Source: Flavobacteriaceae bacterium
Lineage (GTDB): Bacteria; Bacteroidota; Bacteroidia; Flavobacteriales; Flavobacteriaceae
NCBI GenBank assembly: GCA_965224465.1
Contig: OZ245049.1
Span: forward strand, 3,900,001-3,932,000
Reading direction: 5' to 3'
DNA length: 32,000 nucleotides
A program made the position numbers and the translations under genes. Each line of letters begins with the position of its first letter. The first letter of the stretch is position 1. A model generated the notes under the pieces. It was given only the letters and a program-made list of their open reading frames with translations. It was not told the DNA's origin and did no database searches. Shown one piece after another: positions 1 to 28,935 of this stretch.

Positions 1-184
1 GTTTAAAGGAAATACAGAAACTATTTTTCCTTTAACACTAGATGATGAGCACGGGTATTTATACACCGCTATGCAAATAGAACAACGCAATGGTGATGGT
101 TATTTAATTCGTCGTTCTTTTGATGCCATGATTGTCAAAAAAACAGCCTTTTTAAATGCCTACCCACTTCAAAACCCAGAATAA
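1..184 (+). CDS. Cassette gene S (small hypothetical protein), 3' fragment; the 5' end lies outside the window
   Basis: Identical to the 3' part of ORF 2034..2258. The stop TAA at 182-184 overlaps the ATG at 184 (TAATG). Confidence 0.6.
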   Translation, partial: FKGNTETIFPLTLDDEHGYLYTAMQIEQRNGDGYLIRRSFDAMIVKKTAFLNAYPLQNPE

Positions 185-563
185 TGAGTGATTTTTGGAA
201 AAACAAACCTTTAGAAAAAGTGATACGTCACCAAATAGAGTATCATCAAATAAAACAAGAACGTATAAAACCTAATAAACGCCTAGAGATACAAGAAGCT
301 AACGATCAATTTTTTGTAACAAATGAAACAGAAGCATTAACCGCTTTTTGGTGCTATTTTAGTATGGGTGTGGGAGGGGTGTTTTTTTTAATTATCGTAC
401 AATACTTTGGTGTTGGGTTTGTTAATATGGTTACTTTATGGATAGGATTACCTTTTGTTTTATTAGCTTTATTTCATTTAATCATATTCTTTTTAGTACC
501 AATAAAAGAAATAATATTAGACCGTTTACATGGCAAAATAACGTATCCTCGTTTGTTTGGTAA

Positions 564-1687
564 GCTGAATTCAAGTCACAAACGCAACTTTTAGTTAAAT
601 AATAATTGTTCCATTACAAATATAGGGTTTTGATATTTATGTCTCTTCCTAGGTCTGTTATTTAATTTTGTTTCTACCTCTTTGATTCTTTGATCTGTTA
701 GGTTTGTAAAGTCACTTCCTTTGGCAAAATATTGTCTAATCAAACCATTTAAATTTTCGTTAGATCCTCTTTCCCAAGAGTGATATGGATGCGCAAAAAA
801 GTAATCAATACATAAATTTTCTGCAACCTGCTCATGGCCTGCAAATTCTTTTCCATTATCAGCTGTTATAGTATGTAGATAAGGCTTCCAGTCTTCTAAT
901 ATTTCATTGATAGCTTTAGTGACAACAACTGCTTCTTTAGAGCTTACTTTTTTCATTTTAAGCATTCCAGAAGCTCTATCATTTACGGTAAGTATGGCTT
1001 GATTATGGTTTTTACCTATGATTAAATCGACCTCTAAATCTCCAAATCGATTTCTTTGTTCAACAACTTCAGGGCGTTGTTCTATACTAATACGATTCTT
1101 TATAACCCCTCTAGAATCCTTTGATGAGCCACGTTTTCTATATCTCCTTCCCTGTCTGCGAAGGTGTGTATGTAAATCACCATCATTCCTCTTGTCTTCC
1201 CTAATATGCTGATATATACGCTCAATAGACACCGTTTCTTTACCTTGTTTTTTTAGGACACCAACTACTTGCTCAGGACTATAATCGTCTCGCAATAACA
1301 ACTCTATTGCTTGTTGAATATCTTCTGTAAAGCGTTTTCTTTTAGGCTTTTCTTTATGACGTTTAGCATACTTTTTTTGGGCTAATTCATGCTTGTAAAC
1401 TCCATTTCTTTTGTCTGAATTACGCTTAATCTCTTTGCTAATAACAGACTTGTCTTTTCCTATAGCAGCTGCTATCTCAACCTGTTTATAACCTTGTTTT
1501 AACATGCAACAAATTGTGTATCTTTGCGCTTGGGTGATGTGTTTCATACAACTTCTTTTTTCGAGATTTGAGACCGTAAGATACATATCCATCAAGACAA
1601 GAAAGGTAGGTTTTCCTACTTTTCTGTTTTGAAAATATAACCATCATAGAATCAAATCGAAAAGTTGCGTTTATTAGTTGAATTTAA
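564..1687 (-). mobile_element. IS30-family insertion sequence (~1124 bp)
   Basis: Imperfect terminal inverted repeats: GAATTCAAGTCACAAACGCAACTTTT at 567-592, versus the reverse complement of the right end, AAATTCAACTAATAAACGCAACTTTT. Flanking GTAA at 560-563 and 1688-1691. Removing the element plus one GTAA restores the uninterrupted sequence tttggtaataaag seen in copy 3. The exact junction is ambiguous by 1-2 nt. Confidence 0.85.
591..1547 (-). CDS. IS30 family transposase
   Basis: N-terminal HTH (QRYTICCMLKQGYKQVEIAAAIGKDKSVISKEIKRN), DDE core (LEVDLI ... TADNGKEF) and the family hallmark NENLNGLIRQYF. The track ORF extends to 1595. The ATG at 1547 (MKHITQAQRY) fits typical IS30 N-termini better. 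Confidence 0.9.
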   Translation of the reverse strand: MKHITQAQRYTICCMLKQGYKQVEIAAAIGKDKSVISKEIKRNSDKRNGVYKHELAQKKYAKRHKEKPKRKRFTEDIQQAIELLLRDDYSPEQVVGVLKKQGKETVSIERIYQHIREDKRNDGDLHTHLRRQGRRYRKRGSSKDSRGVIKNRISIEQRPEVVEQRNRFGDLEVDLIIGKNHNQAILTVNDRASGMLKMKKVSSKEAVVVTKAINEILEDWKPYLHTITADNGKEFAGHEQVAENLCIDYFFAHPYHSWERGSNENLNGLIRQYFAKGSDFTNLTDQRIKEVETKLNNRPRKRHKYQNPIFVMEQLLFN

Positions 1688-2033
1688 GTAATAAAGAGCA
1701 TCGTACCATACAATTTGATTCGTTGCACGTGTATGCTACCATGACCACCACTGGCGATTTTGCTGCGACAGGAAAAAAAATACGCATTAAAGACAGAAAG
1801 TACAGTTATACATGGGATTTAGAAAGTAGTAATCCAGATGAATATTGGAGTTTTATGGTGTGGTATATGGATAGGAACAGGCCATTGCCTCCTGGTACTG
1901 CTTTTGATCCGTATAGGAAAAAGGACTTTGAGCGCAGAAAAACCGCGGGATTTCCTAAGCCTTTATATCCAAGCAATATAGCAACACCTGAATTTACCAA
2001 GTCGCAACAAAAAGAACGGAAATTAATTGGAGG

Positions 2034-2258
2034 ATGGTAATAAAATCGCATGCAAAAAATGCTGTATTATGTAAGTTTAAAGGAAATACAGAAACTATTT
2101 TTCCTTTAACACTAGATGATGAGCACGGGTATTTATACACCGCTATGCAAATAGAACAACGCAATGGTGATGGTTATTTAATTCGTCGTTCTTTTGATGC
2201 CATGATTGTCAAAAAAACAGCCTTTTTAAATGCCTACCCACTTCAAAACCCAGAATAA
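2034..2258 (+). CDS. Cassette gene S (74-aa hypothetical protein)
   Basis: Its ATG overlaps the upstream L stop (ATGGTAA) and its stop overlaps the downstream L start (TAATG). Conserved in three copies. Confidence 0.65.
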   Translation: MVIKSHAKNAVLCKFKGNTETIFPLTLDDEHGYLYTAMQIEQRNGDGYLIRRSFDAMIVKKTAFLNAYPLQNPE

Positions 2259-2990
2259 TGAGTGATTTTTGGAAAAACAAACCTTTAGAAAAAGTGATAC
2301 GTCACCAAATAGAGTATCACCAAATAAAACAAGAACGGATAAAACCTAATAAACGCCTAGAAATACAAGAAGCTAACGATCGTTTTTTTTGTAGAAAATG
2401 TATCAAGTGCACTGATTTATTCGAAAATATCATTTTTTACAAGTATAGCCTTTGTTCTGATTTTTTATTTAATTTCTTTAATGAATATAAAGGGGGGATT
2501 TCCTTTAAAAGGATATTTAGGAATTACCCCTTTTTTGCTAATAAGCCTTATTTTTCTAATCATACATTTTATGGCGCCAATAAAAGAAATAATATTAGAC
2601 CGTTTACATGGCAAAATAACGTATCCTCGTTTGTTTGGAAATAAAGAACATCGTACCATACAATTTGATTCGTTGCACGTGTATGCTACCATGACCACCA
2701 CTGGTGATTTTGCTGCGACAGGAAAAACAATACGTATTAAAGACAGAAAGTACAGTTATACATGGGATTTAGAAAGTAGTAATCCAGATGAATATTGGAG
2801 TTTTATGGTGTGGTATATGGATAGGAACAGACCATTGCCTCCTGGTACTGCTTTTGATCCGTATAGGAAAAAGGACTTTGAGCGTAGAAAAACCGCGGGA
2901 TTCCCTAAGCCTTTATATCCAAGCAATATAGCAACACCTGAATTTACCAAAGCGCAACAAAAAGAACGGAAATTAATTGGAGGATGGTAA
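2258..2990 (+). pseudogene. Cassette gene L copy 2, frameshifted by one extra T in a homopolymer tract
   Basis: ORF 2258..2644 carries the L N-terminus and ORF 2481..2990 the L C-terminus in another frame. T8 at 2383-2390 contrasts with T7 at 3333-3339 in intact copy 3. Deleting one T gives one open frame across 2391-2481. Confidence 0.8.
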
Positions 2991-3208
2991 TAAAATCGGA
3001 TGCAAAAATTGCTGTATTATGTAAGTTTAAAGGAAATACAGAAACTATTTTTCCTTTAATACTAGATGATGAGCACGGGTATTTATACACCGCTATGCAA
3101 ATAGAACAACGCAATGGTGATGGTTATTTAATTCGTCGTTCTTTTGATGCCATGATTGTCAAAAAAACAGCCTTTTTAAATGCCTACCCACTTCAAAACC
3201 CAGAATAA
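2984..3208 (+). CDS. Cassette gene S (74-aa hypothetical protein)
   Basis: Same overlapping start and stop arrangement as 2034..2258. Differs from it at 3 nt, all amino-acid changing (H6D, N9I, T27I). Confidence 0.65.
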   Translation: MVIKSDAKIAVLCKFKGNTETIFPLILDDEHGYLYTAMQIEQRNGDGYLIRRSFDAMIVKKTAFLNAYPLQNPE

Positions 3209-3939
3209 TGAGTGATTTTTGGAAAAACAAACCTTTAGAAAAAGTGATACGTCACCAAATAGAGTGTCACCAAATAAAACAAGAACGGATAAAACCTAAT
3301 AAACGTCTAGAAATACAAGAAGCTAACGATCGTTTTTTTGTAAAAAATGTATCAAGTGCACTGATTTATTCGAAAATATCATTTTTTACGGGTCTAGGCA
3401 TTCGCTTGTTCTTTCTTTTAATAACAATTGGAACTCCAAAAGAAAAAATACAAATAAATTTAAATTTGGTAGTTATTCCTTTTATATTAATAAGCCTTAT
3501 TTTTCTAATCATACATTTTATGGCGCCAATAAAAGAAATAATATTAGACCGTTTACATGGCAAAATAACATATCCTCGTTTGTTTGGTAATAAAGAACAT
3601 CGTACCATACAATTTGATTCGTTGCACGTGTATGCTACCATGACCACCACTGGCGATTTTGCTGCGACAGGAAAAAAAATACGCATTAAAGACAGAAAGT
3701 ACAGTTATACATGGGATTTAGAAAGTAGTAATCCAGATGAATATTGGAGTTTTATGGTGTGGTATATGGATAGGAACAGGCCATTGCCTCCTGGTACTGC
3801 TTTTGATCCGTATAGGAAAAAGGACTTTGAGCGCAGAAAAACCGCGGGATTTCCTAAGCCTTTATATCTAAGTAATATAGCAACACCTGAATTTACCAAA
3901 GCGCAACAAAAAGAACGGAAATTAATTGGAGGATGGTAA
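3208..3939 (+). CDS. Cassette gene L copy 3, intact 243-aa membrane protein (hydrophilic N-terminus, two hydrophobic segments, ~140-aa conserved C-terminal domain)
   Basis: Single uninterrupted ORF. Hydrophobic segments are ISFFTGLGIRLFFLLITI and VVIPFILISLIFLIIHFMA. No family recognised. Confidence 0.75.
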   Translation: MSDFWKNKPLEKVIRHQIECHQIKQERIKPNKRLEIQEANDRFFVKNVSSALIYSKISFFTGLGIRLFFLLITIGTPKEKIQINLNLVVIPFILISLIFLIIHFMAPIKEIILDRLHGKITYPRLFGNKEHRTIQFDSLHVYATMTTTGDFAATGKKIRIKDRKYSYTWDLESSNPDEYWSFMVWYMDRNRPLPPGTAFDPYRKKDFERRKTAGFPKPLYLSNIATPEFTKAQQKERKLIGGW

Positions 3940-4093
3940 TAGAAACTACTTAGATACATCTATAATACGCAATATATGATGCGCTAACAGATTTTCGTAA
4001 ACATAAAAAAATTACACCTAGCCACCTGTCACATGAATAAGATTTGCGTAAGTGTAGTGTTTATGATTCTAAAAAGATCATGGGTGTTTTTTA

Positions 4094-4253
4094 TACCAAC
4101 TTCATTTCCAAGTGACGGTTTAGAAATAGAATTACTTTTTTGTTCTAGCTAGGCGGAAAATGGAAGGATAGCCTTAGCTATCGTTCTGTTTTTCAACAAC
4201 GATAGCACGTAAAATAGACTATTTATATCGGTCATTTTGGATTTTAATTGGTA
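4094..4253 (+). repeat. MITE-like intergenic repeat, full-length copy A (~160 bp)
   Basis: Left arm TACCAACTTCATTTCCAAGTGACGGTTTAGAAATA. The reverse complement of the right arm is TACCAATTAAAATCCAAAATGACCGATATAAATA, an imperfect ~34-bp inverted repeat of the left arm. The core matches copy D. Confidence 0.8.
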
Positions 4254-4256
4254 GTA

Positions 4257-4366
4257 TAGCTAGGCGAAAATTCTTAGGGTAGCCATTAGCGATCGTTCTA
4301 TTTTTATCAACGCTAGAACATATAATAAAATATTTATATCTGTTATTTTGGATTGTAGTTGGTGTA
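4257..4366 (+). repeat. MITE-like repeat copy B (core + right arm only), starting 3 nt after copy A
   Basis: tagctaggcgaaaa...caacgctagaaca...atatttatatctgttattttggattgtagttggtgta aligns with the core and right arm of copies A and D. Confidence 0.7.
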
Positions 4367-4567
4367 CGTTATACGTGTCTCGGATGCTGGTTTTGTTTTC
4401 AAGCAACTCAAATCTTTAAGTAACTGTTTGGGAATGTGTGATCGGATCGGATGTTTGTCCTGTATAAATTTGAAGCTATTTGGGTTTCTGTAGTAAACCG
4501 AAATCTTGACCTGAATGTTCTTCTTTTCTCTGTTTATAATTTTTTTATATTTTCATTAAATTTACAG

Positions 4568-4597
4568 TTGTAAATTTAAATAAAGGTTGTACCTTTG
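4568..4597 (+). promoter_or_regulatory. Putative Bacteroidota sigma-A promoter of tRNA-fMet (-33 TTG, -7 TACCTTTG)
   Basis: TACCTTTG at 4590-4597 fits the TAnnTTTG consensus and ends 10 nt before the tRNA 5' end. TTG at 4568-4570 lies 19 nt upstream of it. Confidence 0.5.
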
Positions 4598-4607
4598 CAA
4601 TCGAAAT

Positions 4608-4680
<73 letters not shown>

Positions 4681-4690
4681 CTAAAAGCGG

Positions 4691-4722
4691 AAAGCTTCAT
4701 CGTAAAGATGGAGCTTTTTTTT
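4691..4722 (+). terminator. Rho-independent terminator after the tRNA
   Basis: Stem aaagcttcatc / gatggagcttt with loop gtaaa, followed by a T run. Confidence 0.7.
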
Positions 4723-5075
4723 GTGAAAAAATGTAGCTCCCTGTGATGGAATTAAGCAGAAACTGGAGGGTAATAAAAGACGTATGAGAATTATAAGTGC
4801 TTTTACGCTTGTAATTATAAATAAAGGAGCTTTGTATGCTGCCTCTTTTGTGCTTGATATGGGGATGATAGTAGAGGTGTTTGACTGTTTAGTGTCAGCT
4901 TGTTTATTTTCTTTTAAAAGCGTTGTTTAACGCCTCTTTAATTTGTTAAAGCCTATAATTATATTGAATTATTTTTTACAAGATAAAAGGTATAATAGCT
5001 TCGCCTTTGTTATCGCAATCTAAGTATGCAAATAGGTGTGAAATAGAAACCATAGAATGCAACATTATATACTTA

Positions 5076-5183
5076 TACCAACTACATCTCCAAGTGACGG
5101 TTTAGAAATGGAATTACTTTTTAACAACGCTAGAACCTAAAATAAACTATTTATATCGGTTATTTCGGCTTGTAATTGGTGTA
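5076..5183 (+). repeat. MITE-like repeat copy C (both arms, ~52-nt internal deletion)
   Basis: taccaactacatctccaagtgacggtttagaaatggaatta...aacaacgctagaacc...ctatttatatcggttatttcggcttgtaattggtgta. Confidence 0.75.
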
Positions 5184-5303
5184 AACCGCTTTCAAGATAA
5201 TGGTTTTGGTATAACAATGACCTTTGAGTATTTCTTTTTGGAAACTATTAATTTAGAATTAATTATTCTTTATCCAGATAAAGAACAATGTTCATTTGAT
5301 GGT

Positions 5304-5333
5304 GAAAAACACGGTTGGTGTTTTCCAACCGTG
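5304..5333 (-). terminator. Rho-independent terminator of small ORF 5346..5498
   Basis: Perfect 9-bp stem cacggttgg / ccaaccgtg with a 6-nt loop, followed by a U run on the minus-strand RNA (gaaaaa on plus, 5304-5309). Confidence 0.75.
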
Positions 5334-5345
5334 TCGATTTTATTG

Positions 5346-5498
5346 TTATTTTTTTGAACTAGAAGAACCTCCTTTTGAGCCAGATGAACTTCCTTTCGAA
5401 CTTCCTCCTGATTTACTTGATGAAGCATTGCTTCTTCCACTTCCAGATTTATTTCCTGTTGCACTTGGTGCATTTTGCATTCCGCTTGATTTTGCCAT
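5346..5498 (-). CDS. 50-aa Ser/Gly/Lys-rich hydrophilic small protein (below the ORF-track cutoff)
   Basis: Manual translation gives MAKSSGMQNAPSATGNKSGSGRSNASSSKSGGSSKGSSSGSKGGSSSSKK-stop. ATG start, with a strong terminator 13 nt downstream. The track ORFs 5270..5473(-) and 5296..5517(+) are other frames of the same low-complexity DNA. Confidence 0.55.
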   Translation of the reverse strand: MAKSSGMQNAPSATGNKSGSGRSNASSSKSGGSSKGSSSGSKGGSSSSKK

Positions 5499-5698
5499 AC
5501 TAGTTTTTTTTATTTAACACCTACTTCTGTTTTTAGTCTTTTTTCGGTTTATTCCGACTTTTTTTATCGAATTGCGTAGAACGTTTAGCTAAGCGCAGTG
5601 CGGATGTAGAAATGCGAGGCATTTCGTTAAGCAAGAGCAGAGCTGTTCTTTGTTAATTTTCTTTCTCAGAAAAACAAATCATTAGATTTTATTAATCT

Positions 5699-5842
5699 TT
5701 ACTTTTTAGAATTTTTAGCTGCTGCACTTTGGGCTCTAGCAGCAAAACTTCCTTTTGTTACTTCTCCAGAATTTGAAGATTTTGAAGAATTACCTTGTAT
5801 TCTTGCTGCTGCAGATTGTGACATTGATTTTGATTTACTCAT
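5699..5842 (-). CDS. 47-aa hydrophilic small protein with a duplicated AAR-x-Q motif (below the ORF-track cutoff)
   Basis: Manual translation gives MSKSKSMSQSAAARIQGNSSKSSNSGEVTKGSFAARAQSAAAKNSKK-stop. Same strand as 5346..5498 and upstream of it. Confidence 0.45.
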   Translation of the reverse strand: MSKSKSMSQSAAARIQGNSSKSSNSGEVTKGSFAARAQSAAAKNSKK

Positions 5843-6063
5843 AATATTTAAATTAAGTTATTAGGCTTCACTTTTTAGAAGACTCTCTTCTATTAAAATC
5901 TTATTTACACCTCAAATATCCAAAAGATTCCATTTAATTTTCTCACTTTGTGATAAAGTCATCCTATTTGGGATATAGGGCTTGTTTTTGTGGTTTTATA
6001 TAGAAAAGCAACTTGAAAAACAGTATTTTTAGGCTGAAATTAGCAATACTGACGCCCTTATTT

Positions 6064-7098
6064 ATGAAATTATTATTTAATGAGTTAATTAGAGAAGTAG
6101 AAAGAGTTATAGATATAGCTCCTGTTTTTCTAATCTTTGTTGTCCTGCTTGTTTTTAGGAACTGGTACAATCGTTACAAAAAACACTCTTATAGAGATTT
6201 AAATGCACAACTAAACAATGTATTGGATAAATCACAAAAAGAAAACATTGACTATAAAGAGCAATTAAAAAAACATAAAATTATTAAAGGGAAACTTGTA
6301 AATAAGCAAGAGGAGGTTCTTGAATTAAAACAAAATATAGAAGAGTATAATCAGAAATTTCAAATTACTTTAAGTCAAAAAGAGGCAGAAATAGCAGAAC
6401 AAAAAGAAAAGAGAGGTCATCAAGAGGAAGCTTACAAACGTTATGTTAGTTTTAAAAATGTAGAAGCCAACAATTCGCGACTTGGGGCGCATTTTATAAA
6501 AAACGTAATTAGTCAGGTTCATGAAGATTTAGAAGACTTACAATCTGGGTACAAAACTTTTTTAGGTGTCCAGTTTAAAATGAGAAAAAACAAACAAAAG
6601 ATACTTCCTATTAGAGTATTAAAAAACATCTTTAAGCTTTTAGATTACAATGTTTCTGCTCTTAATAAAGAAAGTACTACTTTGAAAAACGAACTTAACC
6701 ACATCAGTTTATTTTTAGAACTGATTCAATATTTAAAGCCGAATACGAAAATTATACTGAACAATTCACTAAGTAAAAGTCAAAATAACTCATTAAGAAT
6801 TAAACCTACGTTGTTTTTTCCATTTATAGAAAATGCGTTAAAACACGGTAGCTTAAATGAAGAAAATTCTTTTATAAGCATAGAGTTAAAAGAAAATTCG
6901 GAAAGACAATTAAGCTATTGTTTGGTAAATAGTGCAGAACAAGCTTTATCCTCGCAAAATAAAGATTCAGAAACAACTAACTTCGGATTAAAAGCATTAA
7001 AAGAATTACTCAACGTCTATTATCCTAAAAGTAAACTAGAACACAAAATATTGTCAAATAATCAGTATTTATCTAAACTAACCTTAATCTTACATTAA
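6064..7098 (+). CDS. LytS/YehU-type sensor histidine kinase (single TM, long coiled coil, no recognisable sensor domain)
   Basis: H-box-like NSRLGAHFIKNVISQV and the PFIENALKHG motif typical of LytS-type kinases. The track ORF starts at TTG 6013. ATG 6064 (MKLLFNELIREV) is the more likely start. Confidence 0.75.
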   Translation: MKLLFNELIREVERVIDIAPVFLIFVVLLVFRNWYNRYKKHSYRDLNAQLNNVLDKSQKENIDYKEQLKKHKIIKGKLVNKQEEVLELKQNIEEYNQKFQITLSQKEAEIAEQKEKRGHQEEAYKRYVSFKNVEANNSRLGAHFIKNVISQVHEDLEDLQSGYKTFLGVQFKMRKNKQKILPIRVLKNIFKLLDYNVSALNKESTTLKNELNHISLFLELIQYLKPNTKIILNNSLSKSQNNSLRIKPTLFFPFIENALKHGSLNEENSFISIELKENSERQLSYCLVNSAEQALSSQNKDSETTNFGLKALKELLNVYYPKSKLEHKILSNNQYLSKLTLILH

Positions 7099-7854
7099 AT
7101 GATTCGCTATATAATTGTAGATGACGCCCCTCAAACTTTAGAAAAAGTTAAAGCAAAAATAGATACTATATCAAAAGATTATGATTTACTTCATATTGCT
7201 AGCTTTAATAGCTCTAAAAAAGCTTTTGAGGAAATTAAGAAAGAAGACTATGATTTATTAATAGTAGATTTTGAAATGCCTGTGTACAATGGAATCGAAT
7301 TAGCTCAAAAGGTAGCTTCTAATAAAAAAATTATTTTTTTAACCTCTACAATAGATAATGAAAAGTTGGTTATAAATAGCCTTGATATTTCTGGTTTCTT
7401 AAGTAAGCCTTTTGATATTGAAGAGTTTAAGGTTGTTTTGAAAAACAAGATTATTGGTAAGATAATTACTGAAATCACATATAACAAAAAGGACTTATTG
7501 ACTATTGGAATTGGTGTCACTCAGGATATAGGATTTTATCCTGATAAAACGTTTTACATTACTACTTCTAGAAATCAAAAAGGAAAGCAAGCTAAAAAAA
7601 ACTATGTTCATTTTATGGGTGAAAAAGACGAAGTTATTGTAGGAAATGTTAGAATTAGTATTAACGAACTATCTGAAAAATTAAAGCCTTATGGTTTTGT
7701 AAAAATTAACCAGAGTACCATTGTTAATTTATCCAAGATTGATAGGCGATATAACAAAGAGCTTACATTAATAGACTGTGGAGAAAAGTTTACCATTGGT
7801 GATCAAGAAAAATCAGGAATAATAATCAAAATACGTTCTTTATTAGGTGTCTGA
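7099..7854 (+). CDS. LytTR-family response regulator
   Basis: Receiver residues IIVDDAP, LLIVDFEMP, IIFLTS and LSKPF. C-terminal LytTR-like segment GFVKINQSTIVNLSKI. The ATG directly follows the kinase stop. Confidence 0.85.
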   Translation: MIRYIIVDDAPQTLEKVKAKIDTISKDYDLLHIASFNSSKKAFEEIKKEDYDLLIVDFEMPVYNGIELAQKVASNKKIIFLTSTIDNEKLVINSLDISGFLSKPFDIEEFKVVLKNKIIGKIITEITYNKKDLLTIGIGVTQDIGFYPDKTFYITTSRNQKGKQAKKNYVHFMGEKDEVIVGNVRISINELSEKLKPYGFVKINQSTIVNLSKIDRRYNKELTLIDCGEKFTIGDQEKSGIIIKIRSLLGV

Positions 7855-7915
7855 CGAAAAGTTGAATGCTTAAAAAATAATCTGTATAAGTTTTGGAGTG
7901 TCGATATTCAGTAGG

Positions 7916-7933
7916 TATTATTATTATTATTAT
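7916..7933. repeat. (TAT)6 microsatellite, intergenic
   Basis: tattattattattattat read directly from the sequence. Confidence 0.9.
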
Positions 7934-8290
7934 CCAGACGTATGTATCTAATAAGCGTCTTCCAAAGCCACAAAATAATGTTATGTGCAATAATATTGTG
8001 TAAATAGATTCTGTAGTTTATTTTGAAAGTAGAGGTGTGCTTGTTTTCGAATAAAGGCGTGTCTAGTTTACATAAATACGTGAGCAAGTAAAAATAGGAA
8101 CCTGTATTCTAGAAACCACCTTATATTTAACGCATGTTCATAAATAACACGAAAAACAACTCTAAAATGACTGTTTTGATTGTAAAACGAAGGGAAAAAA
8201 GAGAATTACGGGAATACCGTACTTTTTATTTAGAACATTTTTCGATCTTCGCAACAATAAGAAAATGGGAAATTTAGTGAAAAAGATTAT

Positions 8291-8980: not shown

Positions 8981-9015
8981 TCATTTATATCGGTCATTTT
9001 AGATTGTAATTGGTA
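8981..9015 (+). repeat. Solo right arm of the MITE-like repeat (copy H)
   Basis: tcatttatatcggtcattttagattgtaattggta matches the right arms of copies A and D. It spans the kinase stop codon (8999-9001). Confidence 0.7.
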
Positions 9016-11014
9016 TTTTAATGTGAATTTGTGTTCCTAGTTTAGTTTTTGAAATAAATTTGACATTTCCTTTTAAATCTTTTACTCGGGACTTTATATT
9101 TTTTATACCGATGCCTTTTTTTGTCTTTTTAATATTAAACCCAATGCCATCATCTTCGATATTAAATAGGATAAACCCGTTCTTTTCTGAAAAAAGGATG
9201 CGAACATTCGATGCTCTCGCATATTTGTTGATGTTTTGAATGGATTCTTGTAAAATTCTGTAACAATTAATTTTAATGGTATTCGATATTTTTTCTGAAT
9301 TTAAGTTTTCACTAAAACGCACGTCGTATTCAAAGTTAGTTATTTTACTTTGTTTTAATAATAATTGAAGGATGAGAGTTTGAAAACTCATGCTTTCATC
9401 GAATTTACTGGAGTATAGATCATGAGATATTTTACGAATATCTTCTTCTATTGATTGTAATTCTTCAATGCTCTTTTCTCGGTTTGCGATGTCTTTTTCT
9501 TCGTTACTTTCGTTTATAGCATCTAAGCTTAAACGGGTTCCAAAAAGTCTGCCTAAAATATCATCATGCAGTTCTTTAGAAAATCTCTTTTTTTCTTTTG
9601 AGCTACCTTCATTAAACATTTTTTGCTGAGATAACATTAAATTATAGATTTCTACGTTTGCCTTACCTTGTTCTTGAATATGTTCCAATTCTTTATTTCT
9701 TGATCTTTGTCTAAGGTAAATAAAGAAAAGAATACTGAAACTAGCTCCAACTATAGAAAACAAGATTACTTGCCATTTTTCTTTTTTTTCTATTTCTTTT
9801 TCTATAATTATTTCATCTGTTTGATAGGCGATTCTTGTAAATTTTTCTCGTATGATACGTTCTTGTTGCTGTAGGCTATCTGATAGTTTTATGTATTTTT
9901 CTAAGTGTCTTTGACCTTTTTTTCCTGGTTCAAGTTTAGATAATAGTAGGTAGGACTCTAGAAGTCCTTCATTATAATTTGATTCTTGTGAGATTTTTTT
10001 AGCTGTTAAAGCGTGGTTAATTGCTGTTAAAGTATCGGATTGACTAAGGTAATATTCGGATAAATGTTGATTGCTCATCACTTGTCCGTTTTTAAAATGT
10101 AAACTGTCTCTAATTTTTAAGGATTTAAAAAATAGTTCAGGGAGTTTATTTAGTTGCTCTAATTTAAAATAGGAGTATGCCAAATTGTCTAATAAATTGG
10201 CATACGTTTGAGGCCTATTACTAAGAAGACCTTTTATTTTTAATGCTTGGAGGTAATACGTAATGGATTCTTCATATTTTTCGCTTTTGTGATACACCCA
10301 TCCTATATTGTTGATGGAAATTGCCTCTAAATATTTTGTGTTTCCTGCTAACTTCAAATTTTTGATTGCTTTCAGGTTGTTTTCTATGGCGAGATTATAA
10401 CGACTTAATTTATTATAAACAACGCCTAAGTTATTGTAAGCTAGGTATAAGCTTCTGTATTGGTGGTTGTTTTTTAAAATTTCAATTGCTTTTATGGAAT
10501 TAATTTCACTGCCTGTGTAATCTTTTATGTTTTCTTGGATTATCGCTAGACTTAAGTAATTTCTTCCTACATCCTTTTGTTTATTTGCTTTTTTGTGAAG
10601 CCTTAAAGCTTTACTGTAAAAATAAAAAGAACTATCAGGTTTGTAACTTAGCTGATAATAATATCCGAGATTTTCATTTATTAAGGCATAACTTAGAGTG
10701 TCTTTTTTAATAGAAGAAACTTTTAATGCAATGAGGTTTAGTTTTTTGAACTTTTCTAAATCCCCTTTTATTAGGTAATCGTAGGCTGTTTTTAAAGCTG
10801 TATTTATTTTTAAAGAATCATTTTTAAAATTGGATATAAGTAATGTTGTTTTCTTTAGTACATCTATTTTTAAGGAGTCTCTTATAAAAGAAGTGTTTAA
10901 TTCTATGGTACCTGTAGCGGGTAGCGTGTGTTTGTCTGCAGCTGTTCTTGGAGTGCACTTTGCAGAGCAACACATGGAGAAAAAGAATAGAATTATTACA
11001 AAACGACGCGTCAT
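8999..11014 (-). CDS. TPR-repeat sensor histidine kinase (HisKA_3 + HATPase_c)
   Basis: N-terminal signal, TPR-like repeats, TM segment VILFSIVGASFSILFFIYL, H-box ELHDDILGRL and ATPase motifs NINKYA, EDDGIGF, KGIGIKNI. Confidence 0.85.
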   Translation of the reverse strand: MTRRFVIILFFFSMCCSAKCTPRTAADKHTLPATGTIELNTSFIRDSLKIDVLKKTTLLISNFKNDSLKINTALKTAYDYLIKGDLEKFKKLNLIALKVSSIKKDTLSYALINENLGYYYQLSYKPDSSFYFYSKALRLHKKANKQKDVGRNYLSLAIIQENIKDYTGSEINSIKAIEILKNNHQYRSLYLAYNNLGVVYNKLSRYNLAIENNLKAIKNLKLAGNTKYLEAISINNIGWVYHKSEKYEESITYYLQALKIKGLLSNRPQTYANLLDNLAYSYFKLEQLNKLPELFFKSLKIRDSLHFKNGQVMSNQHLSEYYLSQSDTLTAINHALTAKKISQESNYNEGLLESYLLLSKLEPGKKGQRHLEKYIKLSDSLQQQERIIREKFTRIAYQTDEIIIEKEIEKKEKWQVILFSIVGASFSILFFIYLRQRSRNKELEHIQEQGKANVEIYNLMLSQQKMFNEGSSKEKKRFSKELHDDILGRLFGTRLSLDAINESNEEKDIANREKSIEELQSIEEDIRKISHDLYSSKFDESMSFQTLILQLLLKQSKITNFEYDVRFSENLNSEKISNTIKINCYRILQESIQNINKYARASNVRILFSEKNGFILFNIEDDGIGFNIKKTKKGIGIKNIKSRVKDLKGNVKFISKTKLGTQIHIKIPITI

Positions 11015-11242
11015 TCAACTTTTATTTTAATCAAAGTAAATCAATTAAAATCAAATAGGTATTCTATTTCTCATAATAATAGTAAGCAAGTTTGTAAATA
11101 GTATCCTATTTGGAACACTACGGACTAAATTCTCAATGGATTGTTTGAGATTAATAGTTATTAGCATTGCGTATAGGCTGTTTTTTGTTTTAGTAATGAG
11201 TGAATAAAGATGGGTGTTTACCGAGATCGTACGGTTCTGAAA

Positions 11243-11400
11243 TACCAAATACATTTCCAAGTGACGGTTTAGAAATGGAATTATTTTTATTTTAGATAGG
11301 CGAAAAACGGAAGGATAATCTTAGATATTGTGCTGTTTTTCAACTGCGTTAGAACGTGAAATAAACTATTTATATCGCTCATTTTTAATTGTAATTGGTA
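11243..11400 (+). repeat. MITE-like repeat, full-length copy D (~158 bp)
   Basis: Collinear with copy A across left arm, core and right arm. Confidence 0.8.
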
Positions 11401-11404
11401 TTAC

Positions 11405-11441
11405 AATAAAACCCCCAAACAGCAGCTGGCTTTTTGGGGGG
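11405..11441 (-). terminator. Rho-independent terminator of the small lipoprotein gene
   Basis: cccccaaa / tttggggg stem followed by a U run on the minus-strand RNA. Confidence 0.65.
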
Positions 11442-13609: not shown

Positions 13610-13750
13610 TGGTATTGTCTTATGGGATTTAATTGTCGAAGATTTGATCTTGTTGAATGTATGCCTTGTAAAGCATAAATTAACTCCATAAAATTAGTGT
13701 TTTTATGTGTTAGAATCATTCTTTTTTAATGCCTATAAGAAGGAAAGTTA

Positions 13751-13789
13751 TATCCATTAAATTTCCAAGTGTCGGTTTAGAAAGGAGTT
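13751..13789 (+). repeat. Degenerate solo left arm of the MITE-like repeat (copy F)
   Basis: tatccattaaatttccaagtgtcggtttagaaaggagtt. Confidence 0.55.
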
Positions 13790-14054
13790 GTTTTTCACAA
13801 TAGGTTGTGGTAAAGTGACAATGTAATGCGATAGTATAAGCTAAATTACTGTTAGATAGCTTTTTTATTAATTTCTTGAAGGATTTTTTATCTGGAAGGA
13901 AAAAGAGGGGGTGATTAGAGTTGTTGCTTTATTTTTTAATGATAAAGAAACGGGAAATTGGAAATGATCGGAGTTATTGGTTCGTATTTATTTTCTTGCC
14001 TGCTTTGACAAAAGAAACGAAGGTTAAAGATGTATTGGTTTTAGTTTAAGGCTT

Positions 14055-15332: not shown

Positions 15333-15352
15333 ATGAAAAAATAATATACTTA

Positions 15353-15392
15353 TACCAACTACATTTCCAAGTGACGGTTTAGAAATGGAATT
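15353..15392 (+). repeat. Solo left arm of the MITE-like repeat (copy E)
   Basis: taccaactacatttccaagtgacggtttagaaatggaatt, ending 8 nt from the stop codon of 15401..16813. Confidence 0.75.
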
Positions 15393-15400
15393 GGTCTTAC

Positions 15401-16813
15401 TTATTTAGTAGCACCATATACATTTATTTCTGCCAAATGATCATAGTAGTTAGGGCCTTCTATTGCGACGTATTTAAAGTACCTAGCAATAATAGCTTTG
15501 TCCAAAGTGTTTAATTGGGCTGCATTTGTTTTTTTCATAGTATAGGTGCCTACAGCAATCCATGTTTTATTGTCTGTACTTACAAAAAATTGATGTTTTG
15601 TGTGTCCTGTTGAACGATTTTTCCATCTGAATAATTCGAAACTTGAAATTGTTTTTTCAGATTTCATGTCTACAACAATACTGTGTGGATAGGGTGCTTT
15701 TACAGCCTTCCATTCAGAATGCCAAAAAGTATTTAAGTTCCCATCAATTATATTTGTAGCTGGTTTAGGAGGGTGTTGTGAAGAATAGCTGATAACTTCC
15801 CAGTCGGTTTTGTTAAACTTAAGGGCTTCAATTGGAGTTACTGTGAGTGCGATAGGTCCAAAACTATTCCCGTAAGCATCACTAATAGAGACGAGTATCG
15901 TTTGTGAGATCCCTTCTAGTCCTCCTAGTGTATTCCCTCCTAATTCTGTATTTGAGCTTATTTGATGTGAAGAGGTTTTTCCTTTAACATTATAGGAAAA
16001 TTTTAGCCCTATATTTTGTTCTGATGGATTTTTCCAAGTAATAAATACCCCTCCTAAAATAGGTTTGAGTTTTACGGATTCTAAAATGGATGAAATACTA
16101 GGGAGTTTAAATGGAGACCAGTCCGAAGCAAATAGGTCTATAGAAGTTTCTTCACCTGTTTCTTCATCTATAGAGGTAGGTACATAATAAGTACGGTAGG
16201 TTATTGGCTTATCAATGTCAACGTTGGTTAATGTACCTGCTGTCTTATCGTAACTTATTTTACAAATAATTTCTTTTCCTGAGTCATCTGAGAATTTAAT
16301 TTCGGTATCTCTAGCTAGGTCATCACTTGGTTTTAGTTCTATAAGTGCATTTCCAGTATTGCCAAAAGAGAAAGTTTCAATAGCTCTAGGGTTTAGGTTT
16401 TTTCTATAGGTCTCTCCGTATGCCGTTGCATACGTAATTGCATTAACAGAGGTGTTTGCTAGTTTATCTCTTGAAATCACATTAAACTCGTAGGACTGTT
16501 CTTCCAATCCTTCAATTAATAATTCGAGTTTGTCTGTCTTATTACTCGATTTTTTATACGGAAATACCTGTTTCCCTTTTCCTTTGTTCCAGGTAACTTC
16601 TATTTCTTTTACATTAAATGCATTGCTTATATAACCAATTATTTTAATTCTTTTGTTTCCAGAGAGGACGTTTAATGAATCTATTTTATTGGTGTAAATC
16701 TGTTCTCCATTTTCGGTGTATTTTTCATGAAATTCGAAAGTGTCATTACAAGCAGTAATTCCAAATAGAATGGATAAAATTATAGGTATGATATAATATT
16801 TATGGTTTCTCAT
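15401..16813 (-). CDS. PUL-associated surface lipoprotein with a C-terminal F5/8 type C (discoidin) domain (DUF4998-like N-terminus)
   Basis: Lipoprotein signal MRNHKYYIIPIILSILFGITAC if started at ATG 16813; the track start at 16897 would overlap the upstream gene. C-terminal NIIDGNLNTFWHSEW is discoidin-like. Confidence 0.8.
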   Translation of the reverse strand: MRNHKYYIIPIILSILFGITACNDTFEFHEKYTENGEQIYTNKIDSLNVLSGNKRIKIIGYISNAFNVKEIEVTWNKGKGKQVFPYKKSSNKTDKLELLIEGLEEQSYEFNVISRDKLANTSVNAITYATAYGETYRKNLNPRAIETFSFGNTGNALIELKPSDDLARDTEIKFSDDSGKEIICKISYDKTAGTLTNVDIDKPITYRTYYVPTSIDEETGEETSIDLFASDWSPFKLPSISSILESVKLKPILGGVFITWKNPSEQNIGLKFSYNVKGKTSSHQISSNTELGGNTLGGLEGISQTILVSISDAYGNSFGPIALTVTPIEALKFNKTDWEVISYSSQHPPKPATNIIDGNLNTFWHSEWKAVKAPYPHSIVVDMKSEKTISSFELFRWKNRSTGHTKHQFFVSTDNKTWIAVGTYTMKKTNAAQLNTLDKAIIARYFKYVAIEGPNYYDHLAEINVYGATK

Positions 16814-16833
16814 AATTTGTTTCTTAAAATTAA

Positions 16834-18021
16834 TTATTTTTTGATTTGTCCCCAGAATGTTATTTCTGCTGCATTTGTAATTCCTGAAGAATTCCATGTT
16901 TCATGAATTGCAATTCTAAAATACCTTATCTCAATAGGTTTGTCAAAGGTGTACTGATCTCCTGCTTCGGCATGATCCATATCCTCATCTGTGTTCTGTC
17001 CTATTGGAAGTCCTGATGGTTTGGTAGATTCGCAGTGTCTTAAAAGAATCCAGTCATCTAAATTCCCTTCAATACCAGGGGTTTCCTTGGTTCCATATAC
17101 GGTGTATTTTTTTGGGTTACCATGGGTGTATGCGAACTTAGAATGCGTAGTTTGGTATAGGGTAAATCTACTAAGGGTTACGTTCACTCCTAAGTCAACA
17201 GTTAGCATGCTAGGGCGTACGTGATCTCCTGGAGTATGTACAATGGTTTTTTTATTGTCATCAAAGAAATTCCAGTAGTCTCCTGACCAAGCATCCCAAT
17301 TATCATCGTTTTGTAAGACTATTTTCTTGAATTTTTTCTTGTCCAAACGCTCTTCAAATAAGGGGGTTAATAGTAGGTCTGTAGTTTTAGCATAGATGGT
17401 GTCAGAAAAATTATCATATCGGTCTCTAACAATGGCACAAAATAAAGTAGGTTTTGGGGCGAATCCTCTAACGGATGTTTTTGAAGATGCCTGTTCTGTG
17501 TATTGAGTTTTGATCAGTTCTATTTTTCCTTCCTCATTTTTGGCTAATAAATCAATGGAAATAGGGGTGTTGAATTTGTTTTCCCAACTAAATTTAGCGC
17601 CTCCAAAATCACTTGTAATAAGAAGGTTTTTTTGAATTATTTGAACAGGTGATATCAGCGGCTTTTTTTTAATTATAACGGGTTCTGATTGATTATTTGA
17701 GCGGTCTACGGTATAAATTTTTATTGTTTTTTCTTTCGTATTTCCGAGTCCTAAAATTTGTATTTCATTATCAAAAATAGAAGCCTTTACTTCCGCTAAT
17801 TCTTTTTTAGAATTGAGGTATTCTGCCTTTACATATAAGAGGTCAGTCCCTTGAGGGAGGTCATAACTAATGTTAAAGCCTCCATTTGTAGGGATTGTTA
17901 TTACATTTTCTACCATTGCTGGTTTCTCTGTGTCGTTTGATATTGGACCGTGTTGGTATTCTTCACAGCCAAAGAAGAGTAAGGATAAAGATGCTATTAA
18001 ATAATTGATTTGGTATTTCAT
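16834..18021 (-). CDS. PUL-associated surface lipoprotein with a C-terminal F5/8 type C-like domain (DUF4959/DUF5000-like)
   Basis: Lipoprotein signal MKYQINYLIASLSLLFFGC from ATG 18021. Position immediately downstream of SusD. Confidence 0.75.
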   Translation of the reverse strand: MKYQINYLIASLSLLFFGCEEYQHGPISNDTEKPAMVENVITIPTNGGFNISYDLPQGTDLLYVKAEYLNSKKELAEVKASIFDNEIQILGLGNTKEKTIKIYTVDRSNNQSEPVIIKKKPLISPVQIIQKNLLITSDFGGAKFSWENKFNTPISIDLLAKNEEGKIELIKTQYTEQASSKTSVRGFAPKPTLFCAIVRDRYDNFSDTIYAKTTDLLLTPLFEERLDKKKFKKIVLQNDDNWDAWSGDYWNFFDDNKKTIVHTPGDHVRPSMLTVDLGVNVTLSRFTLYQTTHSKFAYTHGNPKKYTVYGTKETPGIEGNLDDWILLRHCESTKPSGLPIGQNTDEDMDHAEAGDQYTFDKPIEIRYFRIAIHETWNSSGITNAAEITFWGQIKK

Positions 18022-18050
18022 ATTGATGTTGTTTAAGTTGATAAAAGAGA

Positions 18051-19940
18051 CTACCATCCTGGATTTTGAATGAGACTTGGGTTTTTTATTATTTCTCCTT
18101 CAGGAATAGGCCATAAATAATCCTTTTCACTAAATGTAGGGTTGTACAATACTTTTACAGTATAATATTCATTGATATCTTTTTCTAGTATATTCCACCC
18201 TTTGATAGGCTTGTTCATGTGTTTTTTTGCCAGTTTCCATCTTCTTAAGTCCCAGAAACGGGTGCCTTCAAATGACATTTCTATCATTCTCTCACGCTGA
18301 ATTATTTCTCGCATTCCTTGTTTAGTACTTGGTTTTGAAGGATTTTTTGAATATTTCCCCCAACTACTAACCACGCTTTTTAACCCACCTCTTTCTCTTA
18401 CTAGGTCTATATATTCGTATACTTCATTGTCAGGACTTCCTTTGCTTTCGTTTAACGCTTCTGCATAATAGAGGTATAGGTCTGCTAATCGTACAATAGG
18501 GAAGGCAAAACGTTTGGAGGTAAATTTTGTTCCATTTTGCACTAAGGTTTTCATAGAGACTAACTTTTTCGGCCAATAGCCTGTTGCAGAATACGAAGTA
18601 GTTGAAAATACAGAGGCGAATTCTCCTTTTCTTGCATGGATATACCATGGGTCTTTGTCAGATTTTTCTTTTCCATTTCCAAACCATACACTTCTGTCAA
18701 AAGCTAAATCTGCATAAAAACGAGGTTCTCTTTCGAAATTAAGAATGGCTGTTTTTTGACCTTCTTCTATATAGTATTTGTCTTCTTGGGAGGCTGTTTT
18801 TAATTTAAACCTATTGGTGTAGTCATAATTGATGTCTTCATTAATTGGTACGCCATTTTTTGAGTAGTACATTTCAGCGATTCGCATTGGAGGACAGTGT
18901 CTTGAAAACACAGGGTTGGTTGTGTAGCTGTATAGTCTAGGCATTGATTCGTATTCTATGCTAGCGGTATTACTAGTTTGTCCCCAAATAAGTTCAGAAT
19001 TCCACTTCTCTGTAATGCGACCTCTCAATGCTGATTTTAACATGGTCTGGTCGGATTGAGGAAATGCATTTGTATAGTCTGATTTTAGATGCAATCTAAA
19101 ACCTGCATCATGGCATAAGTCAATTGCTATTTTGGTGGCTGTTGCTGCTTTTTCCCATTTACTTGCATCGTATTCCTTAGGGAAAAAAGACTCCCCGTTT
19201 TTATTTGTAAAACCAGAATACACACTATTTCCATTAAACAAAGGGCTCGCGTAAGTAATCAATACACGTGCTTTGATAGCGGCGGCTATGGGTTTGGTAA
19301 TACGTCCTAAATCTTGATCTTCAAACTGTAAGATTAGCGGCAAGTCTTTGATGGATTCATCTAGTAGTAAAAGGATGTAATCTATAGTTTCATCGGTAGT
19401 GTTTCGAACCGCTTTTACGTTATGTGTGGATTCTGTTACAGGAACTAATTCTTTATTATTTACAATAGGGCCGTACATTCTAAATAGGTAAAAATGAAAA
19501 TAGGCTTTTAAAAATTTTGCTTCAGCAATCCATTGTTTTTTTTCGTATTCGTCAAGCCCTTGTACTTTACCAATGCGACTTAGAAATATATTGCAATTTC
19601 TAATTCCTACATATAGCCCAGATTGTCCTCTTTCTTGCCATTTGTTATATTGGCTGTTGACTACGCTTTGAAATCCTTTTGCTATCTGAGTTCCTGCTCT
19701 GTAAGCAGATTTTTTAGGATACCAAATTTCATCGGCACCATTTAAAGCTGGGTTTTTCACGCTTCCAGGAGAAGGGATTCCCATATACAGCGTGTAGAGA
19801 AACTTTTGCGCATTGTATCTGTTTGAAAATGCATTGTCTAATGTTGCAATATTATCGGGAACTACGTCTAGGTAATCATCTTTACAAGATATAAATATGA
19901 TGGCGAGTGTAGCACAGAGTATGTATATATAATTTTTCAT
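18051..19940 (-). CDS. SusD/RagB family nutrient-binding outer-membrane lipoprotein
   Basis: Lipoprotein signal (LAIIFISC), ~630 aa, directly downstream of the SusC-like gene. Motifs such as RFWDLRRW are typical of the family. Confidence 0.9.
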   Translation of the reverse strand: MKNYIYILCATLAIIFISCKDDYLDVVPDNIATLDNAFSNRYNAQKFLYTLYMGIPSPGSVKNPALNGADEIWYPKKSAYRAGTQIAKGFQSVVNSQYNKWQERGQSGLYVGIRNCNIFLSRIGKVQGLDEYEKKQWIAEAKFLKAYFHFYLFRMYGPIVNNKELVPVTESTHNVKAVRNTTDETIDYILLLLDESIKDLPLILQFEDQDLGRITKPIAAAIKARVLITYASPLFNGNSVYSGFTNKNGESFFPKEYDASKWEKAATATKIAIDLCHDAGFRLHLKSDYTNAFPQSDQTMLKSALRGRITEKWNSELIWGQTSNTASIEYESMPRLYSYTTNPVFSRHCPPMRIAEMYYSKNGVPINEDINYDYTNRFKLKTASQEDKYYIEEGQKTAILNFEREPRFYADLAFDRSVWFGNGKEKSDKDPWYIHARKGEFASVFSTTSYSATGYWPKKLVSMKTLVQNGTKFTSKRFAFPIVRLADLYLYYAEALNESKGSPDNEVYEYIDLVRERGGLKSVVSSWGKYSKNPSKPSTKQGMREIIQRERMIEMSFEGTRFWDLRRWKLAKKHMNKPIKGWNILEKDINEYYTVKVLYNPTFSEKDYLWPIPEGEIIKNPSLIQNPGW

Positions 19941-19953
19941 GTTCTATTAGGTA

Positions 19954-28729: not shown

Positions 28730-28768
28730 ACATTTATAAGTGACGGTTTACAAATTGAATTATTTTTT
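28730..28768 (+). repeat. Degenerate solo left arm of the MITE-like repeat (copy G)
   Basis: acatttataagtgacggtttacaaattgaattatttttt. Confidence 0.5.
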
Positions 28769-28935
28769 GGTTCAAAAAAAAGGGTAAAAGAAATACATCT
28801 TTTACCCTTTTTAATTCAAACAATTCAAACAATAAAATAATTCAGTAACCTCGACCCAAGGGGGCGAGGTGTGTTTTCTGAAAGACTTTTTTTATTTCAA
28901 GGCTGAGCCTCAGGAAATACCCTTTAAATAAGGGG

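Follow-up and report, generated by a model that had tools for sequence, protein, structure and literature searches.

Pore-forming effectors of the VasX, Tke5, Ptx2 and Bte2 family depolarise the inner membrane by means of ion-selective pores. Membrane-embedded immunity proteins, whose genes lie directly downstream, neutralise these toxins; one of them, Tki5, is reported to bind the transmembrane (TM) region of the toxin (PMC13133200). How membrane immunity proteins neutralise such toxins "remains to be elucidated", in the words of the Tke5 study (PMC13133200). In the aux clusters of Vibrio cholerae, incoming effector-immunity modules displace old effectors and leave behind immunity genes together with the 3' ends of effector genes (Kirchberger et al. 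2017, PMC5361080). Here we describe a tandem gene array from a genome of the Flavobacteriaceae that can be compared with both systems. The array lies at the start of a stretch of 32,000 nucleotides (GenBank assembly GCA_965224465.1, contig OZ245049.1, positions 3,900,001 to 3,932,000), which at its full length is referred to as the window. Each unit joins a 74-codon open reading frame (ORF), S, to a gene for a membrane protein of about 243 amino acids, L, and the copies in the window are numbered S1-S3 and L1-L3.

We consider it likely that the window contains the distal end of an immunity array directed against a type VI secretion system (T6SS) pore former of the VasX/Tke5/Ptx2/Bte2 (BTH_I2691) family, with L as the immunity protein and S as the tail of the effector gene. 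So understood, the system is an orphan, or polymorphic, immunity array of a known kind, built from a new and unannotated immunity family. The evidence comes from the window, from its contig and from 22 related L loci drawn from GTDB representative genomes. Labels of the style L001-L018 denote related loci in other genomes (L001 being Aquimarina muelleri CP196409), and labels of the style P0000 denote proteins.

The array, its S segments and the predicted effector

Three units of about 950 bp lie head to tail in positions 1-3939, as established from a list of ORFs, a search for repeats and inspection of the sequence (Table 1). The stop of L and the start of S have ATGGTAA in common, and the stop of S and the start of L have TAATG in common. 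The original prediction, made from the letters of this DNA, had described the three units and both overlaps, and it proved accurate to the base. It had further described one intact L gene, one interrupted by an insertion sequence and one carrying a frameshift, which correspond to L3, L1 and L2, respectively. The terminal inverted repeats of the IS30-family element in L1 are imperfect, and a 3-bp target duplication, TAA, borders it (561-563 and 1689-1691); when the halves of the gene (184-563 and 1692-2040) are joined, an intact ORF of 242 amino acids is obtained. The frameshift in L2 consists of one additional T (T8 at 2383-2390 versus T7 at 3333-3339 in copy 3), and deleting one T from this run restores an ORF of 243 amino acids. 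This homopolymer frameshift could be a sequencing error, or it could reflect slipped-strand on/off switching. The inactivation of two of the three L copies in the window fits dispensable orphan copies. That the array extends past the window, as had been expected, agrees with the presence on the same 5,241,564-bp contig of two more intact L paralogs (P0002 and P0132) and of three distinct S sequences; S1 matches P0121, which is also encoded on this contig.

The nature of S is indicated by a protein of 1077 residues from the same contig, P0123, which was recovered by searching with a 636-residue ORF of A. muelleri. Its last 74 residues are identical to S at 63-64 of 74 positions, and in tblastn S1 covers residues 1018-1077 at 92% identity. 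Likewise, residues 562-635 of the A. muelleri ORF, which directly precedes seven L genes, align with S3 at 68% identity (E = 1e-34). A word-indexed search matched S only to its own genome, and a phmmer search of S against 1.84 billion representatives gave eight hits, made up of the C-termini of proteins of ~1084-1101 residues, fragments and one ORF of 73 residues. The latter, P0139 (39% identity, E = 1.2e-4), is the sole free-standing S-like ORF found. It stems from an unrelated metagenome contig, adjoins an L-like start (MSKNWFKQ...) with no effector upstream, and is best regarded as a remnant itself. Searches of Pfam, PADLOC and PHROGs returned nothing for S.

The start codon of S lies within GGA-TGG-TAA, which codes for the nearly invariant Gly-Trp-stop end of L, and is therefore a by-product of L. 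Shorter remnants of the same kind occur in the related arrays, where 33-42 nt (encoding FLNxYPLQNPK and a stop) form the usual spacer between L genes in L001, L003, L004 and L005. Longer effector remnants measure 99 nt in L002 and 198 nt in L003, so that the relatives span about 33-200 nt. Effector remnants between predicted immunity genes are found both here (S1-S3, at 225 nt) and in L001-L005, as in an immunity array. Judged by these matches, S is the last 74 codons of a VasX/BTH_I2691-type effector gene and no gene family, and TAATG is, by the same reasoning, the inherited effector-immunity junction. The original prediction had treated S as an unknown 74-residue protein in a two-gene cassette read as one coupled chain. 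The first part fails on the identity of 63-64 of 74 residues to the P0123 tail and on P0139 as the one free-standing homolog; the second reduces to an inherited junction and to an ATG (in ATGGTAA) that comes with the end of L. An apparent extension of the S homology 20 codons upstream into the 3' end of L in tblastn contained a stop and weak matches only, and was dismissed as alignment slop.

Several features of P0123 point to a VasX-like effector. The Pfam model VasX_N (PF20249) is matched at E = 1.4e-10 with 41.9 bits, above the gathering score of 27, which places the VasX N-terminal (MIX-containing) region in this protein. Residues 648-817 match model positions 647-837 of the NCBIfam family BTH_I2691_fam (NF041559) at E = 2.6e-16; at 59.3 bits the match is below the curated cut-off of 150, so that the partial homology is significant and the protein falls outside the NCBI subfamily. 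A profile of 18 effector homologs matches the solved Ptx2 toxin (9qpv_A, E = 5e-7) and, weakly, a VasX_N protein of 996 residues (9r8g_A), while PDB sequence searches with P0123 or the A. muelleri effector alone returned nothing. In related loci the effector gene is linked to genes for the T6SS spike or tube: a PAAR gene (Pfam E = 2.7e-22) stands directly upstream of it in 12 loci, and a TssD (Hcp) gene stands upstream in L001. Variation among the effectors, which elsewhere are 80-99% identical, is concentrated in a single, sharply bounded patch, residues 681-720, where mean pairwise identity is 45-52% versus 72-99% in neighbouring segments. This patch sits in the BTH_I2691 region, N-terminal to a highly conserved pair of hydrophobic helices (~755-800). 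The effector of L005 has an insertion of 38 residues immediately downstream of the patch.

In the effector homolog of the A. muelleri locus (L001, 4037-15236), ~400 residues are missing at the N-terminus, and with them the VasX_N delivery region. TssD and the effector are separated by several small ORFs, and the seven L genes are kept. From its gene content, this looks like a 'disarmed' locus retaining immunity genes only.

Table 1. Coordinates of the array, its parts and nearby landmarks in the window
Feature	Position	Strand	Remarks
S1, putative partial 3' remnant of VasX-like effector gene	1-184	+	starts upstream of window; stop overlaps L1 start
L1 5' part, predicted immunity paralog, hairpin super-type B	184-563	+	interrupted by IS30
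Variable core of L1 (TM1, loop, TM2)	308-498	+	differences versus copy 3 concentrate here
IS30-family insertion sequence	564-1688	-	transposase ORF 591-1595, NCBIfam transpos_IS30 E = 1.2e-86
L1 3' part, conserved, predicted cytoplasmic C-terminal domain	1692-2040	+
S2, putative 225-nt effector 3' remnant, 74 codons	2034-2258	+	P0123 C-terminus 63/74 identical; equals P0131
L2, predicted immunity paralog with +1 frameshift	2258-2990	+
Variable core of L2 (predicted periplasm-proximal TM1 and TM2 halves, plus loop)	2441-2538	+
S3, putative 225-nt effector 3' remnant	2984-3208	+	P0123 C-terminus 64/74 identical
L3, intact 243-residue two-TM inner-membrane protein, putative immunity protein	3208-3939	+
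Variable core of L3	3390-3487	+
tRNA-Met, landmark outside array	4608-4681	+	ARAGORN; Rfam 64.9 bits
Dispersed repeat sites	4079-4371, 5061-5188, 8983-9022, 11228-11407, 13736-13790, 15338-15404, 28731-28773

The L family and its variable core

Homologs of L number 680, all of them unnamed, from Aquimarina, Cellulophaga, Tenacibaculum, Olleya and relatives within the Flavobacteriaceae. L genes form tandem arrays in all but two of the 22 related loci, with copy numbers from 1 to 10, and in 18 of the 22 a full-length P0123 homolog ends -28 to +10 nt from the start of the first L gene. In A. muelleri, the seven L genes follow the 636-residue ORF, the stop of which overlaps the first L start. From this conserved context and from the architecture of the protein, we infer that L is an immunity protein for a VasX-like effector. 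A polymorphic immunity array had been offered beforehand as a speculative reading, and it holds with L directly behind a VasX-like effector in 18 related loci and arrays of up to 10 copies.

The AlphaFold2 (AF2) model of L3 (predicted local distance difference test, pLDDT, 85; predicted template modelling score, pTM, 0.79) shows short strands at the N-terminus and TM helices at residues 51-73 and 85-105, followed by a beta-sheet and helices. The distribution of Lys and Arg suggests that both termini are cytoplasmic and that the short loop is periplasmic. The cytoplasmic domain, ~140 residues at the C-terminus, has 18 invariant columns. No significant match to L was found in Pfam, PADLOC or PHROGs (a sub-threshold Pfam hit to DUF4271 was treated as noise), and PDB sequence searches with L or an L profile returned nothing. 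The top weak Foldseek hits were PH domains at E >= 0.1, which is insufficient for assigning a PH-like fold to L. Partial matches to the NCBIfam model of the Bfi2 immunity protein (NF053700) were obtained for 47 of 112 L family members, the best at E = 5.6e-7. Of the two proteins, for both of which profile and fold searches were proposed in the original prediction, S was placed as an effector tail by sequence searches, and L was left without a significant Pfam, PDB or fold match. Literature searches on T6SS and VasX in Tenacibaculum and on T6SS immunity with gene conversion found no paper on the L family or on gene-converted T6SS immunity arrays, and those on Bfi2/Bfe2 returned almost only unrelated papers. 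The Tenacibaculum arrays contain an extra ORF of ~248 residues (L009, 8509-9255), spacers of 779 nt in L009 and L011 and regular spacers of 128 nt in L018, a pattern that hints at a second gene family or other remnants interleaved in these arrays.

The cores of L2 and L3, 98 nt each, are bounded by ATCATTTTTTAC and TAATAAGCC and match without gaps at 52 of 98 positions. By comparison, the flanks of these two copies differ at 16 of 858 positions (~98% identity; Fisher p = 3e-37). The lengths of these cores and the ~191-nt version in copy 1 had been read from the sequence beforehand, and three-way alignment and counts reproduced them exactly. At the protein level, the differences between L2 and L3 fall exactly on the predicted periplasm-proximal halves of both helices and on the loop (residues ~62-94). 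The genome contains no fewer than five L paralogs of the subfamily (L1, L2, L3, P0002 and P0132), with pairwise identities of 88-98% over residues 1-42, 96-99% over 106-243 and 24-60% over 43-105. These identities and the AF2 model bear out the earlier description of conserved N- and C-terminal parts around a variable two-helix membrane hairpin.

The best match of each core is found in another genome, at 71-96% amino acid and 77-84% DNA identity. The L3 core is nearest to P0003/P0004 and to copies in L003/L004 (84% in amino acids; 82-83% in DNA to the L003/L004 copies), the L2 core to P0009 and to copy 4 of A. muelleri (P0012; 78% and 84%, respectively), and the L1 core to copy 2 of A. muelleri (P0023; 74% and 77%). 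Among the two paralogs elsewhere on the contig, the core of P0132 is nearest to the first, effector-adjacent L of L002 (96% in amino acids) and that of P0002 to P0010 (71%). The C-domains of those core partners are only 76-86% identical. Several paralogs whose nearest relatives are effector-adjacent immunities elsewhere characterise an immunity array; P0132 and L002 provide such a pair, and the L1-L3 cores are 74-84% identical to copies in A. muelleri, L003 and L004.

Between genomes, DNA identity is 74-89% in the flanks and 77-84% in the matched cores, that is, at an equal level. The cores match between-species divergence and are therefore old, stable lineages; the unusual part is the flanks, which are homogenised within the genome. 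A. muelleri likewise has homogenised flanks (C-domain 89-98%, core 45-69%), and L002 and L004 are without flank homogenisation (flanks 78-86%). Homogenisation of flanks around old specificity types points to concerted evolution within the genome, by gene conversion or unequal crossing-over. As far as these comparisons go, the core represents the stretch of old paralog lineages spared by this process. A core acting as a mobile cassette or as a hypermutated segment was ruled out by core lineages that extend across species. The flanks of L2 and L3 differ by 10 synonymous and 4 non-synonymous substitutions, and the S copies by 0 synonymous and 3 non-synonymous changes; the numbers are small, and the patterns fit a reading of S as a remnant.

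Proposed mechanism and competing explanations

The array would have been founded by one illegitimate join of the end of an L gene to about codon 1004 of the effector gene. The L-to-S junction is identical in all three units, and the 225-nt remnant would therefore have been made once and then spread. Spread of the unit would have proceeded by unequal crossing-over or gene conversion, in tracts running from the C-domain of L through S into the N-terminus of the next L. The flanks would thereby be kept near-identical within the genome, and conversion tracts would stop at sequence that is too divergent. The hairpin cores would be too divergent for conversion and presumably selected to stay different, persisting as discrete types shared with other species. 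Each hairpin type would neutralise one toxin variant within the membrane. The hairpin probably binds the variable patch of the toxin (P0123 residues 681-720) beside the conserved hydrophobic helices, and a toxin inserting from the periplasm would be able to reach just the hairpin and loop of L. An array of this kind could protect the cell from its own effector as well as from variants delivered by neighbouring cells.

From the distribution of variation in both proteins, we infer that the type of hairpin and the patch of the effector correspond to each other and together determine the specificity of neutralisation within the membrane. A fuller model can be put forward tentatively. The L hairpin (~62-94) and effector residues ~681-720 may constitute an intramembrane lock-and-key that sets the specificity of VasX-type immunity, with the library of keys kept by gene conversion of the flanks and with the effector tail serving as a handle for recombination and translation initiation. 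We regard this model as plausible and as falling short of probable.

Several observations weigh against the interpretation of the locus as an immunity array against a VasX-like effector, or against parts of it. For the genome of the window, P0123 is placed only to the same 5.24-Mb contig, and adjacency to L and linkage to T6SS genes are seen in the related loci. The AF2 model of the effector (1077 residues, nine sequences) has a pLDDT of 38.6 and is too poor for a fold search. The confident L model gave no Foldseek match at E <= 0.001 in the PDB or BFVD. The match of L3 to the Bfi2 model is partial (residues 84-143, ~60 residues) and, at 17.5 bits against a cut-off of 350 (E = 0.002), leaves L outside that family and, on sequence, at most a distant relative of it. 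All three S ORFs are open, so that S may be translated. Finally, across six effector/first-L pairs, variation in the patch of the effector was not significantly correlated with that in the core of the neighbouring L (rho = 0.25, p = 0.37).

The open S frames are the starting point for a different explanation, in which the two genes are a true cassette with coupled translation and S is a functional protein of 74 residues. It might serve L as a co-factor or regulator, or act as a decoy derived from the C-terminal module of the effector. Each of the three frames has an ATG and overlaps its neighbours, and the 73-residue S-like ORF P0139, from an unrelated metagenome contig, likewise stands before an L-like start. 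However, S and the tail of the 1077-residue effector of the same genome are 86% identical, and apart from P0139 the hits to S are effector C-termini and fragments. The remnants of 33-200 nt in related arrays are mostly too short for a domain, the start codon of S is produced by the conserved GGW-stop codons of L, and among the S copies 3 non-synonymous changes stand against 0 synonymous ones. The low-confidence effector model, in turn, puts S at the last strands of a beta-rich region beginning near residue 874. A functional S is thus unlikely in our judgement. Equally improbable is a joint requirement for the L paralogs against one resident effector, based on dosage or on hetero-oligomers, or a different role of L in the membrane that is connected with effector export. 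The same core types turn up in several species, as separate lineages and in varying order, and the P0132 core is 96% identical to the effector-adjacent L of L002, as expected of an acquired or retained cognate immunity gene. In addition, L1 and L2 are inactivated and so dispensable, and A. muelleri has retained seven L genes next to an effector that lacks its N-terminal part. These points stand against the occurrence of 1 to 10 L copies beside one effector, which would suit joint action, and against the strongly conserved cytoplasmic domain with its 18 invariant columns, which suggests a shared function beyond toxin recognition.

Two further explanations concern the variable hairpin and the array as such. 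Active diversification of the hairpin, by a diversity-generating retroelement, programmed cassette switching or phase variation, would account for the sharp boundaries of the variable segment, and the homopolymer frameshift in L2 could in principle switch expression. Against this, the cores have counterparts of 71-96% identity in other species at between-species DNA divergence, which marks them as stable lineages. The sole enzyme ORF in the array is the IS30 transposase, positions 1-6000 contain neither a template repeat nor a reverse transcriptase, and no phage or PADLOC defence signal was obtained. We consider active diversification very unlikely. An assembly artefact that multiplied a single-copy locus is hardly credible, given three different cores, unit-specific substitutions, an IS30 element with its target duplication, a contig of 5.24 Mb and comparable L arrays in other genomes of the 22-locus set. 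What speaks for such an artefact is that flanks of 98-99% identity are a repeat type mishandled by assemblers and that the frameshift falls in a homopolymer.

If L is an immunity protein as proposed, the array has consequences in several directions. VasX/Tke5-type pore formers are widespread T6SS weapons, and the L array with its relatives would amount to a natural experiment on their neutralisation. L paralogs that are near-identical save for a hairpin of ~30-60 residues, taken together with one variable patch in the effector, nominate specificity surfaces. Should the lock-and-key model be true, natural variation would map the neutralisation interface of a widespread toxin family. The immunity family is unannotated, with at least 680 members and no Pfam model, and it would allow "hypothetical" arrays in marine Flavobacteriaceae to be annotated, including those of the fish pathogen Tenacibaculum maritimum. 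The array further shows concerted evolution shaping what are probably immunity genes. The biology extends a known theme and opens no new one.

Surroundings of the array and comparison with known systems

The distance from the L3 stop to the tRNA-Met gene is 669 bp, close to the ~670 bp originally given, and the repeats noted beside the array belong to a set of dispersed intergenic repeats that flank it. These consist of two modules (cores CATTTCCAAGTGACGGTTTAGAAATGGAATT and ATTTATATCGGTCATTTTGGATTGTAATTGG), together or apart at at least seven sites. Rfam gave no match for the two repeat copies within positions 1-8000, the part scanned. The repeats could be elements resembling repetitive extragenic palindromes or miniature inverted-repeat transposable elements, or else a regulatory or terminator element. 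A scan of positions 1-5000 for sigma-70 promoters, with Bacteroidetes-type promoters outside its scope, found 14 promoter-like sites versus a shuffled expectation of 20.7. In the same positions there were 4 terminator-like sites versus 2.7 expected, none of them inside array units. Two small predicted ORFs on the minus strand (5270-5498 and 5699-5842) encode Ser/Gly/Lys-rich low-complexity peptides of 47-67 residues and lie between the tRNA gene and an operon with a LytTR response regulator. The 28 kb downstream have ordinary Bacteroidetes content, with two-component regulators, a phosphatidylserine decarboxylase and a polysaccharide utilisation locus. The latter (15401-23043, minus strand) is unrelated to the array and comprises a SusD-family protein (18051-19940), an adjacent ORF of 1029 residues (19954-23043) and, in 15401-18057, F5/8-type-C surface proteins with DUF4959, DUF5126, DUF5000 and DUF4998.

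In the orphan modules of Rhs and contact-dependent inhibition systems, to which PMC5361080 also refers, truncated 3' toxin fragments and immunity genes are stacked downstream of a full-length gene. As here, shared sequence in these modules permits recombination with the main gene. However, their fragments bear the toxic C-terminal domain and can re-arm the main gene, whereas S corresponds to the last 74 residues, well past the pore-forming region (648-817), and would therefore be unable to supply a new toxin. The immunity proteins of pore-forming colicins (Cai, Cia and ImmE1) are small inner-membrane proteins with TM helices that recognise the membrane-inserted helices of the toxin. They thus place specificity in the membrane-embedded part, as is proposed for L. 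No sequence or fold relationship between them and L is detectable, and a large cytoplasmic domain is present only in L.

The described effector-immunity pairs closest to the predicted one are VasX-TsiV2, Tke5-Tki5, Ptx2-Pti2 and Bte2-Bti2 (PMC13133200). They share with the system described here a VasX_N region, a BTH_I2691 region with hydrophobic helices, and an immunity gene immediately downstream with an inner-membrane product (PMC13133200). On the other hand, L has no match among solved structures or Pfam families, only ~60 of its residues resemble Bfi2, and the effector is accompanied by a PAAR gene and not by a DUF4123 adaptor.

The organisation of the locus is most like that of the orphan immunity arrays of V. 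cholerae (PMC5361080). In both, a string of immunity genes lies 3' of an effector-immunity pair (here seen in related loci), the nearest relatives of single copies are cognate immunities of other strains or species, and 3' pieces of effector genes are left behind; illegitimate and homologous recombination are both invoked. The present array differs in its occurrence in marine Flavobacteriaceae, with PAAR and a Bacteroidetes-type Hcp (TssD, PF17642), and in being composed of one immunity family with near-identical flanks and an identical junction. For the Vibrio arrays, duplication was argued against (PMC5361080). Here, a single family, homogenised flanks and one shared junction argue for tandem spread and gene conversion of one founding unit, as opposed to repeated independent displacement.

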